This document shows positions 5,039 through 11,484 of a stretch of 22,886 nt of DNA, piece by piece. The notes beneath the pieces are model-generated. The model was not told the DNA's origin and did no database searches. It saw only the letters and a program-made list of their open reading frames with translations. Made by a program: the position numbers and the translations under genes. How positions within the stretch are numbered: the first letter of the stretch is position 1; every line of letters begins with the position of its first letter. Source of the DNA: Candidatus Kapaibacterium sp. (GTDB taxonomy: Bacteria > Bacteroidota > Ignavibacteria > Palsa-1295); the NCBI GenBank assembly GCA_035686785.1, contig DASRZC010000176.1:1-22886 (forward strand), read 5' to 3'.

Positions 5039-5236
5039 ATGGCAAGCATGATAACCGCGAAAGAACAAGTGAAAGAGCTTCTCGAAGTTCTGCCGGATGA
5101 TGTGACATTTGACGATCTTCACTATCATATTTTTGTTCGAGAAAAGATCGATCAAGGCGTGAAAGATTTGGAAGAGGGCCGAGTCCTCTCCGAGGAAGAA
5201 ATGGAAGCCGCCTTCAAGCTATGGCTCGAAGAATAG
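5039..5236 (+). CDS. putative type II antitoxin (family not recognised), partner of the ParE/RelE-like gene
   Basis: 65-aa acidic protein. Its 3' end overlaps the start of the downstream ParE-like ORF by 16 nt. The call rests on size and context only. Confidence 0.5.
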   Translation: MASMITAKEQVKELLEVLPDDVTFDDLHYHIFVREKIDQGVKDLEEGRVLSEEEMEAAFKLWLEE

Positions 5237-5536
5237 TTTGGTCCTTTACGGCTCGGAAAGATTTGGAGTCAATCTATGAGTTTCTTCATCGAAGTTCTCC
5301 GCTTTACGCAAAGCGGTTTGTGATCAAGGCGCGTGAGGCTGCGCGGTCACTCAAGCAACTGCCGGACCGAGGGCGTTTTGTTCCGGAATATCCCGGCTCC
5401 GGAATATCCCGGCTCCGGGATTCGCGAGATTTTTGTTGACAGCTATCGGCTGCTTTATCGCTTCATTTTCGACGAGATCGAGATCGTGGGAGTCATTCAC
5501 ATGTCGAGGGATTTTTCGAACGTAGAAATTGATTGA
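5221..5536 (+). pseudogene. ParE/RelE-family toxin disrupted by a 16-bp tandem duplication (frameshift)
   Basis: The N-terminal part (5221..5439, MARRIVWSFTARKDLESIYEFL...LPDRGRFVPEYPGSG) and the C-terminal part (to 5536, ...GSGIREIFVDSYRLLYRFIFDEIEIVGVIHMSRDF) are in different frames. Removing one 16-bp unit restores a single 99-aa ParE-like ORF (316-16=300 nt). Confidence 0.8.
5383..5414. repeat. perfect tandem duplication CCGGAATATCCCGGCT x2
   Basis: Units at 5383..5398 and 5399..5414 are identical, and the next 4 nt (CCGG) restart the unit. The 16-nt length is not a multiple of 3. Confidence 0.95.
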
Positions 5537-5743: not shown

Positions 5744-6412
5744 TTACCGCTGTCTTTCCACGGACGCCTGGAACTCCGTGAGATACATCGGTTCGAGCGT
5801 ATCGAGGGTGCCATCGCGTAACAGTGTCGAAGAGGATGCCGTTAGACGCGCGATCGTGGCGAGCGAAGGCGAAACATAGGTGGCGGTATCCGGAAGGAAT
5901 GGCGAGGGATGAAGCAAAAAATGGTCGTGCAATAGCATGGGGACGTTCCCAAGCTGCGAGATGGCCGCACCGTTTAGCAATCGAAGGTCCTTCGATTCCG
6001 GGAATTTCGCTATATAAAATAAATCTTCCCGATACCCAGGTGTGACGATATAGATGCTGCCAGTAGCCTTCGATTCCGCAGCCATCACTTCATGCTGCGT
6101 TAGCGGTACCAAACCGGGGCCTGCTGTGGAATTGGCGCCCGCTGCAAAACAAAATCCTTTTGCGAACGAAAGGCCGATTCTCAGTCCCGTAAAACTTCCC
6201 GGCCCAATGATGAGACCGATACGGGAGATTTCGCGAGCGGGAATTCCGCTCTCCGCCAATAACTTCGCGGTTTCGAGCGCCAGCCGCGCATCATGGATAC
6301 CGCGCTCGCCCTCGGATGCATCCGCGTGGAACTCGCGGAGCATTTCGCCATCCTCGCTGGCAATCCCAATGGCAAGATGCGCAGTCGAGGTATTGAATAC
6401 TATGATCGGCAT
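5744..6412 (-). CDS. tsaB: tRNA N6-threonylcarbamoyladenosine biosynthesis protein TsaB (YeaZ family)
   Basis: 222 aa. LAIGIA..., the GLIIGPGSFTGLRIGLSFAKG signature, and typical length. Confidence 0.88.
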   Translation of the reverse strand: MPIIVFNTSTAHLAIGIASEDGEMLREFHADASEGERGIHDARLALETAKLLAESGIPAREISRIGLIIGPGSFTGLRIGLSFAKGFCFAAGANSTAGPGLVPLTQHEVMAAESKATGSIYIVTPGYREDLFYIAKFPESKDLRLLNGAAISQLGNVPMLLHDHFLLHPSPFLPDTATYVSPSLATIARLTASSSTLLRDGTLDTLEPMYLTEFQASVERQR

Positions 6413-6420
6413 CCGTTACT

Positions 6421-7011
6421 CTAATGAGATTGTAATTTTGGATTCGAATACCGATGCAACAAAATCCATTCTGCTTTTTGAGGTTCCAGATCAGCATCTC
6501 CTAAGGCCGCGCGCCAAAGCTGATAATATTTCGTTGTTCTCCCGCTTAGCCTCGGCAAATCTTGCACAAACCACCATTGCTCAAGATAGCGGTAGCCGAC
6601 CGAATCGCGCTCAATTGTGTAATGACTTGATTGGTCCGAATAGCTTGAGTCATACTCGAATAGATCAGCGCCTGTCCCGTAACTATGACGGTTGTAGGAT
6701 TCTGATGTAGAATCGTTTTGGGAAAAAATAAGTATGATGACCCCCAAAACCAAGGGATTTATAAGAACAAATTTCCATTTATTTTTCCATAATGCGATTG
6801 CGGAAAGCGGAAACGATAAGAGAAGCACAAATAAGGATACCCACGCTAACGGTGCGGAGAATGTATGATGATACGGAAGCGCACTGCCGAATGGGGTTTC
6901 GCTGTAATCATTTGAAACAGCAGCGAATCCAATGAAAAACGTACAAATGTATTCAACCCATCCTCCGATAAGGATCAAGCTTATTTTTAGAAACGCAAAC
7001 AGGTATCGCAT
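6421..7011 (-). CDS. hypothetical membrane protein (about 3 TM helices plus a roughly 95-aa soluble C-terminal domain)
   Basis: 196 aa. Hydrophobic segments are LFAFLKISLILIGGWVEYICTFFIGFAAV, APLAWVSLFVLLLSFPLSAIALW and FVLINPLVLGVIILIFS. I recognise no family. It is AT-rich compared with its neighbours and ends 8 nt before the tsaB start. Confidence 0.55.
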   Translation of the reverse strand: MRYLFAFLKISLILIGGWVEYICTFFIGFAAVSNDYSETPFGSALPYHHTFSAPLAWVSLFVLLLSFPLSAIALWKNKWKFVLINPLVLGVIILIFSQNDSTSESYNRHSYGTGADLFEYDSSYSDQSSHYTIERDSVGYRYLEQWWFVQDLPRLSGRTTKYYQLWRAALGDADLEPQKAEWILLHRYSNPKLQSH

Positions 7012-7047
7012 TTTTACTTACCAATTAGCTATAATCGTTCCCTTCGT

Positions 7048-7299
7048 TCACGTGACAGCTTCATTCTCAACAAAATCGTGCAGCATATCGGCTCCTAAAT
7101 CAAACTCATTCGGCCAGTAGATTCCATCGCCGCCTTCGTAGATTCGTACTCGTCCAAAAAAATGAGGATCTCTGAGAGGTCGCGTCAGCGGCGCATCAGG
7201 AAGTATTGATGTCAGATCGATACGGGCTGTGGTACCATCATCGAACTTAAGCTCAAGATTTTGTTCTTTCAGCGCATGAACTTCTATAATGCTAACCAT
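7048..7299 (-). CDS. DUF2442 domain protein
   Basis: Track ORF 7048..7392. ATG 7299 gives MVSIIEVHALKEQNLELKFDDGTTARIDLTSIL...PLRDPHFFGRVRIYEGGDGIYWPNEFDLGADMLH, which fits the DUF2442 pattern. It starts 2 nt after the DUF4160 stop. Confidence 0.75.
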   Translation of the reverse strand: MVSIIEVHALKEQNLELKFDDGTTARIDLTSILPDAPLTRPLRDPHFFGRVRIYEGGDGIYWPNEFDLGADMLHDFVENEAVT

Positions 7300-7301
7300 A
7301 A

Positions 7302-7562
7302 CTACGATAAAGGTTGAATCTTCTGTAAAGTTTCCGGGAGTTTGCTCTTTCGCCAATTTTCCATAAGCTCCTCGGTATGTTTGGATGCCCATTCCCTTAT
7401 GTAGCGAACGGCTGATGCCGGCAATTGGCCCTTGATGATTTCGAGAGTTTCAATATCGAATTTAGCCTTCTTACCCTCATACTCCGCATGGAAATGGGGC
7501 CGGTCATGATCCAGGAAATACATCTTAATCACTATTCCGTAAAACCTGCTAATCTCCGGCAT
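7302..7562 (-). CDS. DUF4160 domain protein
   Basis: 86 aa. MPEISRFYGIVIKMYFLDHDRPHFHAEYEGKKAKFDIETLEIIKGQLP...IREWASKHTEELMENW carries the family's conserved PHFHA motif. The ATG (7562) abuts the gcdH stop codon (7563..7565) with no spacer. Confidence 0.8.
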   Translation of the reverse strand: MPEISRFYGIVIKMYFLDHDRPHFHAEYEGKKAKFDIETLEIIKGQLPASAVRYIREWASKHTEELMENWRKSKLPETLQKIQPLS

Positions 7563-8744
7563 CTATCCTCCATAAGCGGGTATCCCCGTAATATCCTCCC
7601 CCAGCACCAGCGTATGAATATCATGCGTTCCTTCGTAGGTGCGAACCGATTCCAAGTTCGTCATGTGGCGCATGATAGGATATTCGCCGAGGATGCCATT
7701 CGCACCGTGAACATCGCGAGCGGTTCGCGCAATTTGAAGAGCGATATCGACATTATTGCGCTTTGCGAGTGAGACTTGCTGCGGACGCATGGTGCCTTCG
7801 TTTTTGAGGGTTCCCAATCGGTGAACCAACAACTGTGCTTTCGTGATTTCCGTCAGCATGAACGCGAGTTTTTCCTGCACGAGTTGGAATCCGCCAATGG
7901 GCCGGCCGAATTGCACGCGGCTCTTCGCGTAATTTACGGAACTTTCATAGCAAGCCATCGCCGCGCCAACGGCGCCCCATGCAATGCCATAGCGCGCTTG
8001 CGTCAGGCAACTCAGCGGGCCTTTCAGTCCTTGCACGCCGGGCAGCATATTCTCTTTTGGAAGCTCGACATCCTGAAAAACGAGTTCGCTCGTCACGCTG
8101 GCGCGGAGCGAATACTTCCCCCTCATTTCCGGCGCGGTAAAGCCATTCATTCCTTTCTCGACCAGAAATCCGCGAATCGTTTTTGCATCGTCGCTATCGA
8201 GCTTCGCCCACACGACGGCGACATCGGCGATCGTCCCGTTCGTGATCCACATCTTCGCGCCGTTCAGCACGTAGCCGTTCGAAGTTGTCTTCGCGGTTGT
8301 GACCATTCCGGAAGGATTCGAGCCGAAGTCCGGCTCCGTCAGCCCGAAGCATCCGATCGCCGCGCCGGAGGCCAGCTTCGGCAGCCATTTCATGCGCTGT
8401 TCCTCGGTGCCAAACGTGAAAATCGGATACATTACCAACCCGCTCTGCACGCTGGCGAACGAGCGCATCGCCGAATCGCCGCGCTCAAGTTCCTGCATGA
8501 TGAGGCCGTAGGAAATATTGTCGAGACCGGAACTGCCATATTTTTCCGGCAGCGTTGGCCCGAGCAGGCCCAGCGCGCCAATCGTGGGAACAAGCTCGCG
8601 CGGAAACGTCATCGCCTGATTATGCGCCTCGATGATCGGTAGCACCTCAGCCTCGACGAAGGAGCGTACCGTATCGCGGACCATCCGCTGCTCCTCGGTG
8701 AGGAGCGATTCGATGTCGTAATAGTCAACCAGCATTGCGGGCAA
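7563..8744 (-). CDS. gcdH: glutaryl-CoA dehydrogenase (acyl-CoA dehydrogenase family)
   Basis: 393 aa. SFASVQSGLVMYPIFTFGTEEQRMKWLPKLASGAAIGCFGLTEPDFGSNPSGM and the C-terminal GEYPIMRHMTNLESVRTYEGTHDIHTLVLGEDITGI closely parallel known GCDH sequences. Confidence 0.9.
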   Translation of the reverse strand: MPAMLVDYYDIESLLTEEQRMVRDTVRSFVEAEVLPIIEAHNQAMTFPRELVPTIGALGLLGPTLPEKYGSSGLDNISYGLIMQELERGDSAMRSFASVQSGLVMYPIFTFGTEEQRMKWLPKLASGAAIGCFGLTEPDFGSNPSGMVTTAKTTSNGYVLNGAKMWITNGTIADVAVVWAKLDSDDAKTIRGFLVEKGMNGFTAPEMRGKYSLRASVTSELVFQDVELPKENMLPGVQGLKGPLSCLTQARYGIAWGAVGAAMACYESSVNYAKSRVQFGRPIGGFQLVQEKLAFMLTEITKAQLLVHRLGTLKNEGTMRPQQVSLAKRNNVDIALQIARTARDVHGANGILGEYPIMRHMTNLESVRTYEGTHDIHTLVLGEDITGIPAYGG

Positions 8745-8812
8745 TTATGAATTAGGAATTATGAAAATTTAGAACGCTAGTTCATCATTCATAATTCATA
8801 ATTCCTAATTCA
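8743..8812. repeat. inverted heptamer arrays forming an 18-bp perfect stem (possible terminator or insulator between the lipoprotein gene and gcdH)
   Basis: TGAATTAGGAATTATGAA (8748..8765) is the exact reverse complement of TTCATAATTCCTAATTCA (8795..8812). The arms are built from AATTATG/AATTAGG and TTCATCA/TTCATAA/TTCCTAA heptamers. Confidence 0.75.
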
Positions 8813-8844
8813 GCCTTTCCCGGAGCATCGTCGGCGATGCTGGT

Positions 8845-9528
8845 TTACTTTTGCTCGAACGAGAGCAAGTGGTTTTCGACCATCCCAAAATTGGGACGCT
8901 CGATATGCGAGAAAATCAGTCCGGTGCCGCGAGCGAACCATTCGGTGCCGGTCGTTCCCTTCACGCCGGTGTATTGTACCATCACAACGCTGTCATAGGT
9001 TTTTCCCTCTACCTGCGCCGTGCCGCCATACATGGTGACGTTCGCGGTGATATGCTCCCCTTGCGATATGAACGACCACGTGGCATTTTTTTGAAGCGGC
9101 GCTTTCAGATCGACCCAGCTATCGGTGTAATTGTCCGGCGATGGTTCGAGGCCAAGCGCCACAGCTTGCGTGTCACAAAGCGCGTAGTACCATAGCTGAG
9201 GCGTACCGTAATTATTCGAGTAGCTCCAAAGGCAGGCATAAACTGGCATGGTCTTGAACGTATCGGTATTGCCCTGCATGGACATCGTGAGCCCACCGGA
9301 AGCCGGATGGTACGGCGCATTCAGAGAGGTTACGGTATAATTATATTCGCAATTCGTCGTTGCGAGATGAATATAATAATTCCTCACGTCCGGCTCCGGC
9401 GCGGGCGTCGAAGGATTATCCGCGATCGAGGAGCAGCCCGAAGCTGCAAACCCCAATGCGAGTGAAAGAGCCGCAAGTACATAATTCTTGCAGCCCAATC
9501 CCAATTTGTTAATACCACGTTTCATCAT
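8845..9528 (-). CDS. hypothetical lipoprotein, last gene of the ECF sigma operon
   Basis: Track ORF 8845..9606. ATG 9528 gives MMKRGINKLGLGCKNYVLAALSLALGFAASGCSS (signal peptide plus lipobox ASGC). The earlier ATG would overlap the upstream gene's end. I recognise no family. Confidence 0.6.
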   Translation of the reverse strand: MMKRGINKLGLGCKNYVLAALSLALGFAASGCSSIADNPSTPAPEPDVRNYYIHLATTNCEYNYTVTSLNAPYHPASGGLTMSMQGNTDTFKTMPVYACLWSYSNNYGTPQLWYYALCDTQAVALGLEPSPDNYTDSWVDLKAPLQKNATWSFISQGEHITANVTMYGGTAQVEGKTYDSVVMVQYTGVKGTTGTEWFARGTGLIFSHIERPNFGMVENHLLSFEQK

Positions 9529-9568
9529 CTCATCTCTCTCTTTCTCTTTCTGTTGCGGTCGAACCGCA

Positions 9569-10744
9569 TTAAAACCGATACGTAAGCGCGTATTCGATGC
9601 TGCCATTCAGCGAATTGAATACGTTCGAGCCATCATAAATTACTGGCGTACTCGAAGAAAGAATGGCGCTCTCCGATCCATTTTGGTGCAGCCGGCTCAC
9701 AATAAGCGAGACTCCCCCAAGCAGTCGTTCGCCGAATGGCACTTCAATTCCAAGTTCCGCGCTCAGCATCGTGCCGAGCGAATAGAAGCCGCCGCCCGCC
9801 CCGCCGGTCACGAAAAATAGTCCTTGAACTACTGGCTCCCGGTGGCGGTAGAATAGTTCACCAGCATAGCCTTGCTGAAGTTCCATCGTTTCGTGCGTAT
9901 ATCCCGCTCCGGCCGCGGGTCTCAGACCGGCGAATGAGCCATCTGTAATTCTCAACCCGACTTGATTTTTTTCATCGAGGTTATACGCGGCTCGAATAGT
10001 CACGTCCGCGAAAGGCCCTTGCTGCGGGACGGAACCCGGAAAACTAAATCCGCTCATCGGCGAAGAAATTCCGGCTTCGAATTTTGATTCGGCATCGGCT
10101 GGCGGAAGCTCCCTCAAAGATTGAAACGTAGCATGGCTAATTGAAGGTAATGGAATGCTCGCCACTTCTGATTCTTCCGGCGCAGGATGCATCGTGATGG
10201 CGGAAGATGGATCACCCACGATCAATGAAATATCATTTGTCGTCGTCAAATTATCTCCGGGAATTTCTGAATTTACCTGCTCTATCGCCGTTCGATAAGC
10301 TGGTTCGAAGGTGCGCTGCGCGGTCTCGAACCTGGCGTTCGCCGCCATGTGCTGGATGGATATTCCCTGGTTTTTGATTTTACCGCTTTCGGCACTATTG
10401 GCTCCGGCATTTTGAAATTCGAACGAACCAGCAACTCCGGCGATAAGGATAGCGGCCACGCCCGCCGTGACTGCAATACGGCGAAGCGTCCAAAAACCAA
10501 CCGGGAGCCGCTCTTCCTCTTGCAACGCCGCAATGCGAGCGAAGACTGCTTCCTCGAGTTCTGGTGAAATGGAAATATTTTGCGCCGCACGGACCGCCAT
10601 TTGCCGGAGCGCGTCATGGGCCTCGAAAATCTCTCGGATTTCCGGACTCACCGACACGCGGTGCAACAATTCCGCTCCTTCCGAATCATTCAACCGCCCA
10701 TCGAAATAGGCAATGATCGTATCTTCTATTGGATATGCTTTCAT
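9569..10744 (-). CDS. anti-sigma-factor-like membrane protein with a beta-barrel-like C-terminal domain
   Basis: 391 aa. ATGA overlap with the ECF sigma gene. The N-terminus IIAYFDGRLNDSEGAELLHRVSVSPEIREIF resembles the anti-sigma N-domain but lacks the Cys ligands. One TM segment (IAVTAGVAAILIAGVAGSF). The C-terminal roughly 170 aa shows alternating hydrophobic/Gly-rich strand-like segments and ends ...YALTYRF. Confidence 0.55.
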   Translation of the reverse strand: MKAYPIEDTIIAYFDGRLNDSEGAELLHRVSVSPEIREIFEAHDALRQMAVRAAQNISISPELEEAVFARIAALQEEERLPVGFWTLRRIAVTAGVAAILIAGVAGSFEFQNAGANSAESGKIKNQGISIQHMAANARFETAQRTFEPAYRTAIEQVNSEIPGDNLTTTNDISLIVGDPSSAITMHPAPEESEVASIPLPSISHATFQSLRELPPADAESKFEAGISSPMSGFSFPGSVPQQGPFADVTIRAAYNLDEKNQVGLRITDGSFAGLRPAAGAGYTHETMELQQGYAGELFYRHREPVVQGLFFVTGGAGGGFYSLGTMLSAELGIEVPFGERLLGGVSLIVSRLHQNGSESAILSSSTPVIYDGSNVFNSLNGSIEYALTYRF

Positions 10745-11484
10745 CGTGCAAATACCTCCTCGATTCCGCGAGATAGATCGTCCAGTGCTTCTGTTTCAGG
10801 CAGATTGGATGATTGCTCATCCTCCGGCTCGAAACTCTTTTTTGAAACCCGCGATCGGCTTCGGCGTCCCCCCGCGAGGCGCCCCGCCAGGCTTCCTTCG
10901 TTTTTGTAATGAGGCGTGAGAAGTTGCCGAAGCTGCTTTTTCGCCCTCGTGATTCGAACTCGGACGTTCATTTCCGTCGTGTTCGTCATTTGGGCGATGG
11001 CCGCATAATCGTGTCCTTCGAATTCGCAAAGCAAAAATGCTTCGCGGTACATCGGGGCGATTTTTTTTAATGCCGAGCGGAGCAGGTCGTCCGCGATCAA
11101 TTGATCGAGCGGTTCCACCGACGCGTCCCGCGTATCGCCACCCAGCGTGTCGATCTCGGCCGGATTCCCGATCTGTACGAATTCCGGCGTGAATTTCGAT
11201 TCGCGCAGTAAATTAAGGCATACCGAGCGGGCAATCAGCAAGACCCAGCTTGTGAGTGCGCCTGCTGCTCGAAGTTGCTCGCGGCGCGTATAGACTCGCA
11301 CGAAAACTTCCTGGAAGGCGTCCTCGGCCAACATGCGGTCGCCCATATAATACAGGCAATAGCTGAAAACCCGCTGACGGTGCAGCGAATAAACGTACTT
11401 AAAACCGGCCATATCACCTTCGATGAAAGCCTCGATAAGCTTGAGTTCGTGTTCGTCTAATGTTTTGCGCGATCCTTGTGGCAT
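10741..11484 (-). CDS. RNA polymerase ECF-type sigma-70 factor with a roughly 55-aa C-terminal extension
   Basis: 247 aa. Region 2-like: RVFSYCLYYMGDRMLAEDAFQEVFVRVY...WVLLIARSVCLNLLRE. Region 4-like: YREAFLLCEFEGHDYAAIAQMTNTTEMNVRVRITRAKKQLRQLL. A basic-then-acidic tail follows. Confidence 0.85.
   Translation of the reverse strand: MPQGSRKTLDEHELKLIEAFIEGDMAGFKYVYSLHRQRVFSYCLYYMGDRMLAEDAFQEVFVRVYTRREQLRAAGALTSWVLLIARSVCLNLLRESKFTPEFVQIGNPAEIDTLGGDTRDASVEPLDQLIADDLLRSALKKIAPMYREAFLLCEFEGHDYAAIAQMTNTTEMNVRVRITRAKKQLRQLLTPHYKNEGSLAGRLAGGRRSRSRVSKKSFEPEDEQSSNLPETEALDDLSRGIEEVFAR

Follow-up and report, generated by a model that had tools for sequence, protein, structure and literature searches.

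A predicted DhiT/DhiA-type toxin-antitoxin pair behind gcdH in Candidatus Kapabacteria and the orphan membrane protein gene that follows it

Positions 6421-7562 of a 22,886-nucleotide contig of Candidatus Kapaibacterium sp. form a 1.1-kb block of three small genes between the host genes gcdH and tsaB, and this block most probably consists of a DhiT/DhiA-type toxin-antitoxin (TA) pair and an unrelated orphan gene for a membrane protein of 196 amino acids. The contig, here called the window and analysed at its full length, is a metagenome contig (ENA ERZ27256814 k141_280484) whose proteins are labelled 'Candidatus Kapabacteria bacterium' at NCBI. Judged by sequence, positions 7048-7562 are a new member of the known DhiT/DhiA type II TA family in its short form, with a toxin of 86 and an antitoxin of 83 amino acids. 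By analogy with the members that have been tested, the DUF4160 protein would arrest growth and the DUF2442 protein would neutralise it by direct binding. It is proposed that the pair is a long-standing passenger attached to the 3' end of gcdH by a 0-nucleotide junction, and that it behaves as a dispensable addiction module which is kept under purifying selection in most lineages, has been deleted in one and has suffered decay of its toxin in another. The gene for the protein with three predicted transmembrane (TM) helices would have entered or arisen between the antitoxin gene and tsaB in the window's lineage only. This open reading frame (ORF) lies outside the TA module, and no functional tie between it and the pair was found.

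The toxin and antitoxin proteins

The 86-amino-acid protein matches Pfam DUF4160 (PF13711) over residues 9-70 with 82.2 bits against a gathering cut-off of 23, phrog_14333 with an E value of 3e-32, and the NCBIfam model of the toxin DhiT (NF048015) end to end with an E value of 7e-24. It retains 17 of the 17 invariant columns in an alignment of 37 homologues, including E3, R6, H19, H23 and H25. The 83-amino-acid protein matches Pfam DUF2442 (PF10387) with 44.6 bits, the gathering cut-off being 23.9, and its residues 6-79 align (E 0.002) with the N-terminal domain of NE0471 from Nitrosomonas europaea (PDB 2AUW); no other solved structure contains a DUF2442 domain. Unlike NE0471, which has 170 amino acids and an extra C-terminal domain that is presumably lambda-repressor-like in SCOP, the window antitoxin corresponds to the N-terminal domain alone. 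No DNA-binding domain was detected by Pfam or NCBIfam in either the toxin or the antitoxin.

The AlphaFold2 (AF2) model of the toxin has a predicted local distance difference test score (pLDDT) of 94 and consists of five strands and two helices. A fold search of the DUF4160 model against the PDB returned a best E value of 0.35 and hence no significant neighbour and no mechanistic lead, which agrees with a 2025 survey in which DUF4160 is listed as an effector domain in Menshen systems and the pairing of DUF4160 with DUF2442 is noted (PMC12065111). The cluster of His, Asp and Glu residues (E3, D18, H19, H23 and H25) invites the speculation that the toxin is a metal-dependent enzyme, possibly a nuclease.

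Toxin and antitoxin genes are found together well beyond this contig. Among loci from viral contigs a DUF2442 ORF stands directly downstream of DUF4160 in 79 of 80, the exception being a fragment of 509 nucleotides, and the DUF4160/DUF2442 pair is a robust two-gene unit. The toxin gene precedes the antitoxin gene in the window as it does in Dickeya, and in the window the two share a strand and are separated by 2 nucleotides. In the same viral collection (L103-L182, with examples at L108 3552-3794, L124 3536-3730, L161 3643-3852 and L174 3522-3944) 12 of 71 non-redundant pairs carry a separate small gene of the helix-turn-helix (HTH) family HTH_3 (XRE-type) directly after DUF2442, and in 3 of the 71 the HTH is fused to the DUF2442 ORF. 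L174 encodes another DUF2442 protein as well, which matches HTH weakly. The occurrence of separate and fused forms suggests that the DNA-binding part of the 'long' DhiA is a detachable module.

A preliminary description of the block, made from the DNA letters, had called the pair TA-like, which the Pfam and NCBIfam assignments to the DhiT/DhiA family bear out. It had also credited the pair with no established function and had regarded it as part of an uncharacterised system, and on both counts the family membership speaks otherwise, since NCBIfam holds DhiT and DhiA models and members have been tested experimentally (PMC8198452, PMC12724237). In Dickeya dadantii 3937 the dhiTA genes are annotated as DUF4160/DUF2442 with the toxin gene first; DhiT inhibits the growth of both Dickeya and E. 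coli, co-expression of the antitoxin abolishes the toxicity, and the DhiTA complex represses the promoter of its own operon (PMC8198452). Like DhiT and DhiA, the window pair combines a DUF4160 toxin with a DUF2442 antitoxin in toxin-first order, with genes that are a few nucleotides apart or overlapping. A difference is that the Dickeya operon is driven by an autoregulated promoter of its own, whereas in the window the toxin ATG comes directly after the stop codon of gcdH.

The second tested member is the 'Persistence Enhancing Module' of Thermus thermophilus plasmids, in which an 87-amino-acid DUF4160 protein and a 92-amino-acid DUF2442 protein raise plasmid persistence, and a plasmid without the second ORF cannot be introduced or established (PMC12724237). 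The window pair shares the short-form architecture and the sizes of this module, whose first ORF is toxic and whose second is neutralising. The settings differ, as the Thermus module is plasmid-borne, lies downstream of a replication gene and stabilises its plasmid, whereas the window pair is chromosomal, sits within a housekeeping operon and has kept its position across the clade.

Conservation of the pair at the gcdH site

Searches with the tsaB and DUF4160 proteins, and inspection of the contigs of their closest homologues, yielded six informative loci for comparison (Table 1). A scan with gcdH across 185,579 species genomes found 80 loci at 62-73% identity, none of them with tsaB, DUF4160 or DUF2442 nearby, and a tsaB scan of JGI metagenome contigs gave distant matches only, at 47% identity or less.

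Table 1. Comparator loci in relatives within the Kapabacteria
Locus	Identity	Gene order
L098/L099/L100	gcdH 88%, toxin 80%, antitoxin 72%	sigma, anti-sigma-like, lipoprotein-like, gcdH, DUF4160, DUF2442
L101	toxin 79%, antitoxin 72%	gcdH, DUF4160, DUF2442
L102	toxin 81%, antitoxin 73%	gcdH, DUF4160, DUF2442
L183-186	toxin remnant 75%, antitoxin 76%	gcdH, DUF4160 remnant, DUF2442
L097	tsaB 73%, antitoxin 74%	DUF2442 then tsaB
L091/L092	gcdH 92%, tsaB 70%, about 80% DNA identity	gcdH overlapping tsaB, no pair

The pair occupies the same position in five other lineages of Kapabacteria, and gcdH, which is 85-92% identical to its orthologues in L091, L098, L101 and L183, lies upstream wherever the contig reaches it (all but L097). 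Where the toxin start is intact (L098, L100, L101 and L102), the toxin ATG comes directly after the gcdH stop in all four loci, and the gap of 2 nucleotides between toxin and antitoxin recurs wherever a locus extends to the toxin stop (all but L100), including the fragment L097. The G+C content (GC) of the pair is 40-47% in every lineage compared with 51-56% for the adjoining gcdH. Between lineages the proportions of synonymous and non-synonymous differences (pS and pN) in the toxin and antitoxin genes are 0.65-0.9 and 0.07-0.19, so that synonymous sites are saturated, and the ratio of non-synonymous to synonymous divergence (dN/dS) is about 0.05-0.15 where it is computable, with about 0.07 for the toxin against that of L102. 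Both genes of the pair are under purifying selection. The synonymous divergence (dS) of gcdH between lineages is 1.2-1.9. The shared site together with the saturated synonymous divergence indicates that the pair has been at the end of gcdH throughout the divergence of these lineages, and a low GC that is stable across all of them is no mark of recent transfer.

The block had at first been read as a recently acquired, AT-rich cassette. The AT-richness itself is real, as the block has a GC of 43.4% against 53.5% for the contig and is the lowest-GC stretch of 1142 nucleotides in it, about 3.6 standard deviations under the mean, its three genes ranging individually from 42.6 to 44.8%; the contrast of 32-50% with 57-67% in the neighbours given in the preliminary description is overstated, gcdH having 56.9% and tsaB 55.2%. 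A single recent horizontal acquisition of the whole block between gcdH and tsaB would account for this composition and for the empty site in a relative with about 80% DNA identity. It is nevertheless very improbable given that the pair is found at the same site and with the same junctions in lineages whose gcdH dS exceeds 1, that its own synonymous divergence is saturated, that its low GC persists in every lineage, and that L097 shows the intermediate state of a TA pair without the membrane gene. The block is not flanked by direct repeats, and neither an integrase nor a tRNA accompanies it, which also speaks against such an event. The hexamer ATGCCG, common to the start codons of DUF4160 and tsaB, was considered as a repeat and rejected as it holds only 3 informative bases. 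A recent arrival would fit the orphan gene alone among the three.

The history of the pair may also include recombination. The L097 antitoxin (7-261) is 86% identical to that of L098 (7264-7518) with a dS of 0.52, compared with 72% to the window antitoxin, whereas tsaB groups L097 with L091 (82%), and this disagreement hints at an exchange of TA alleles.

Loss and decay of the pair

In L091/L092 gcdH overlaps tsaB by 4 nucleotides (ATGA) with nothing between them, while the upstream synteny is as in the window, and DNA homology to the window ends at 7582 and resumes at 6400. The overlap confirms that the block is accessory, as the preliminary description had supposed. In L183 (5961-6222, and likewise in L184-L186) the start codon of the toxin has changed from ATG to AAG, followed by a frameshift and by stop codons within the first 13 codons. 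What is left is a toxin remnant of 73 amino acids without nine of the invariant N-terminal residues, next to an intact antitoxin, and this state is found in several samples. The decayed toxin frame starts at the gcdH stop, the same point as in the intact toxins. The pair is dispensable, and a site at which it is variously intact, reduced by decay of the toxin or deleted is what the life cycle of a chromosomal TA module usually produces. The pair-free state of L091 may be a loss or it may be ancestral.

The orphan membrane protein gene

The 196-amino-acid protein has hydrophobic helices at about residues 2-37, 52-76 and 86-103 followed by a tail of about 95 amino acids that belongs to no family, in line with the three TM helices and unassigned tail of the preliminary description. 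A frame of this length is open in 0.1% or fewer of shuffles of the 635-nucleotide interval, and the ORF is therefore probably a real gene. A word-indexed search of 5.8 billion protein clusters returned only the protein itself, and an exhaustive HMMER search of 1.84 billion representatives returned the protein itself and one marginal match (P0242, E 1.8e-4) to a 760-amino-acid protein secreted by the type IX secretion system (T9SS), which was judged to be due to chance or composition. A sub-threshold Pfam match to DUF4064 (17.5 against 32.1 bits) was likewise rejected as a similarity of TM segments. No matches were found in plasmid or phage DNA, PADLOC, PHROGs or NCBIfam.

Among the relatives the gene is absent from L091, L097, L098, L101, L102 and L183, and different genes follow the antitoxin in its place. 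In L097, whose tsaB is the most similar among the relatives, tsaB comes after a 22-nucleotide spacer with no membrane gene between; in L101, L102 and L183 a convergent hemL-like aminotransferase gene stands straight after DUF2442; and in L098 an unrelated ORF of 169 amino acids with a signal peptide starts 127 nucleotides after DUF2442. Within the window's own organism five other contigs carry the orphan gene, of which three show 100% identity across the region aligned and a fourth has a single mismatch at its end, outside the gene.

It is unlikely that the ORF is non-functional, being either a frame left open by chance or a remnant that is decaying within inserted DNA. The protein is an orphan, its single-sequence structure model has a low pLDDT of 58, too poor for a fold search, the GC at its third codon positions (GC3) is 43% as opposed to 60-70% in host genes, and there is no variation by which to gauge selection on it, all of which would suit such a relic. 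Its length, rare among shuffles, its three clean hydrophobic helices and its tight packing (36 and 8 nucleotides) behind an A-rich leader ahead of the ATG favour a functional gene.

The preliminary description had taken the three genes for one unit and the membrane protein for the effector of a defence system. In this scheme they would form an uncharacterised defence or abortive-infection system, the pair sensing or controlling a membrane-disrupting effector of 196 amino acids, and it could appeal to their common strand, to gaps of 2 and 36 nucleotides with no predicted terminator between, to their similarly low GC of 42.6-44.8% and to the three TM helices. Yet the closest orthologous pairs (L097, L098, L101, L102 and L183) lack the membrane gene, which argues against a unit of three, and the tested family members act as two-gene modules (PMC8198452, PMC12724237). 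A same-strand next neighbour with at least 2 TM segments occurs in 0 of 67 DUF4160-DUF2442 loci, these being the non-redundant loci with enough downstream sequence, and a single TM-like segment in 1 of the 67. The membrane protein has no homologue and shows no association with DUF4160/DUF2442 elsewhere, and the PADLOC-DB models give 0 matches at E values up to 1 for all three block proteins. The sole likeness to abortive-infection or TA-plus-membrane-effector systems is the layout of two small genes then a membrane protein on one strand. A defence system of three genes is accordingly extremely improbable. Two outcomes that the preliminary description had itself counted as refuting its idea have thus come about: the membrane protein is not associated with such pairs elsewhere, and the block is conserved at this locus across the clade as far as the TA pair, though not the membrane gene, is concerned.

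Several points weigh against the proposal of a DhiT/DhiA-type pair with an unrelated orphan gene behind it. The toxin scores 84.3 bits against NF048015, under the equivalog cut-off of 100 bits, and is thus placed by sequence in the DhiT superfamily without being an equivalog of Dickeya DhiT. The antitoxin falls short of the full-length DhiA criterion of about 160 amino acids, since it matches the NCBIfam model (NF048016) weakly and at profile positions 1-40 of 160 only, with 21.4 bits against a cut-off of 200; unlike Dickeya DhiA, which has about 160 amino acids, it lacks the C-terminal half, and autoregulation of the Dickeya type may therefore not apply here. Since the contigs with the orphan gene hardly differ from one another, they allow no evolutionary test of selection on it. 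The spacings of 36 and 8 nucleotides make it probable that the orphan gene shares a transcript with the TA pair, and a regulatory link would then be possible. Lastly, loss of the pair in L091 and its repeated gain by recombination at gcdH may look alike without a species tree.

Expression and regulation

From the spacing of the genes, co-transcription of the block with its neighbours is plausible. A scan for promoters and terminators gave counts no higher than in shuffled sequence, with none in the 36-nucleotide spacer, and no sigma-70-like promoter was found within 100 nucleotides upstream of the toxin ATG in a scan that omits promoters of the Bacteroidota type. On account of the 0-nucleotide junction and the absence of a DNA-binding domain and of predicted terminators, transcripts of the pair would most likely arise through read-through from the gcdH promoter, with translation coupled to that of gcdH.

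A possible reading of this arrangement is that the pair has been domesticated and now serves the gcdH operon as a regulatory appendage, for instance by coupling growth arrest to the expression of the dehydrogenase. The 0-nucleotide junction with gcdH is kept across deeply diverged lineages, both genes are under strong purifying selection, neither protein has a DNA-binding domain, and the 100 nucleotides upstream of the toxin hold no sigma-70-like promoter. Against this stand the clean deletion in L091/L092 and the toxin decay in L183-186, which fit a dispensable element, as well as the fact that promoters of the Bacteroidota type lay outside the coverage of the scan, and domestication is therefore improbable. 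A further variant, in which the pair is a promoter-less, translationally coupled appendage of gcdH, kept for a long time, that acts as a domesticated growth-control switch tied to the expression of the dehydrogenase, and in which the new membrane protein has been recruited into its transcript in the window's lineage, is quite improbable. The preferred explanation is still that of a dispensable addiction module to which the orphan gene is unrelated.

Upstream of gcdH, at 8738-8822, there are two opposed arrays of heptamers, AATTATG in 3.3 copies (8743-8765) and TTCATAA in 4.6 copies (8781-8812), which together make an imperfect inverted repeat with arms of 23-28 nucleotides and no Rfam match. 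Positions 5862-5939 of L091 align with it in reverse orientation, a sign of conservation of the palindrome, which might serve as an operator or as a structured leader.

Layout of the locus and other TA modules in the window

The features of the locus are collected in Table 2. Read from the sequence, the junctions of gcdH, DUF4160, DUF2442, the 196-amino-acid ORF and tsaB are 0, 2, 36 and 8 nucleotides, and both the gene order and these spacings are exactly those of the preliminary description. The gcdH stop codon TAG abuts the toxin ATG, and the TAG of the toxin is followed by TT and then by the antitoxin ATG. The gene call of gcdH, with 390 amino acids, begins at 8735, and the C-terminus of the protein is intact. 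Rfam gave zero matches across the whole window.

Table 2. Features in and around the block, from upstream to downstream
Feature	Position	Strand	Remarks
ECF (extracytoplasmic function) sigma factor gene	10741-11484	minus	
391-amino-acid protein gene	9569-10744	minus	
253-amino-acid protein gene	8845-9606	minus	
gcdH-like acyl-CoA dehydrogenase	7563-8744	minus	Three acyl-CoA dehydrogenase domains all present; host gene
DUF4160 protein, 86 amino acids	7302-7562	minus	Pfam PF13711; predicted DhiT-family toxin
DUF2442 protein, 83 amino acids	7048-7299	minus	Pfam PF10387; predicted short-form DhiA-family antitoxin
A-rich spacer, 36 nucleotides	7012-7047	minus	From antitoxin stop codon to start of 196-amino-acid ORF; read from sequence
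Orphan gene, 196 amino acids, three predicted TM helices	6421-7011	minus	Lineage-specific
tsaB	5744-6412	minus	Downstream host gene; TIGR03725 82 bits (cut-off 69.3), full-length coverage

Two other sites in the window carry small TA modules. Between rplQ and tsaB, at 5039-5536 on the plus strand, a ParD/RelB-like ORF of 65 amino acids (5039-5236) is followed by a ParE toxin gene. A perfect tandem duplication of 16 nucleotides, TCCGGAATATCCCGGC, present in 2.3 copies at 5382-5418, breaks the ParE gene into two frames (5221-5439 and 5333-5536), and the split toxin is probably inactivated. At 334-911 on the plus strand a TA-like pair of DUF433 (334-591) and DUF5615/PIN-like (588-911) genes, which overlap by 4 nucleotides, occupies the intergenic stretch that immediately precedes infA and the rpsM-rpsK-rpsD-rpoA-rplQ cluster. 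With the pair behind gcdH the contig thus holds three small TA-type pairs wedged among housekeeping genes. In the relative L099 a HicA toxin gene and a small partner ORF (2388-2773) stand just upstream of the sigma-factor gene, which again points to an abundance of small TA modules in these genomes.

Significance

For annotation the outcome is modest and has little significance beyond it: the pair receives a DhiT/DhiA-family TA label and the 196-amino-acid ORF becomes a lineage-specific hypothetical membrane protein. That the GC of the pair has stayed low through a long divergence illustrates that atypical composition is no evidence of recent transfer. Taken together, the loci at this one chromosomal site form a natural series of the life cycle of a TA module, in which it is found intact, deleted or toxin-decayed and with varied passenger genes behind it, and throughout this series the pair remains joined directly to a housekeeping gene at its stop codon.

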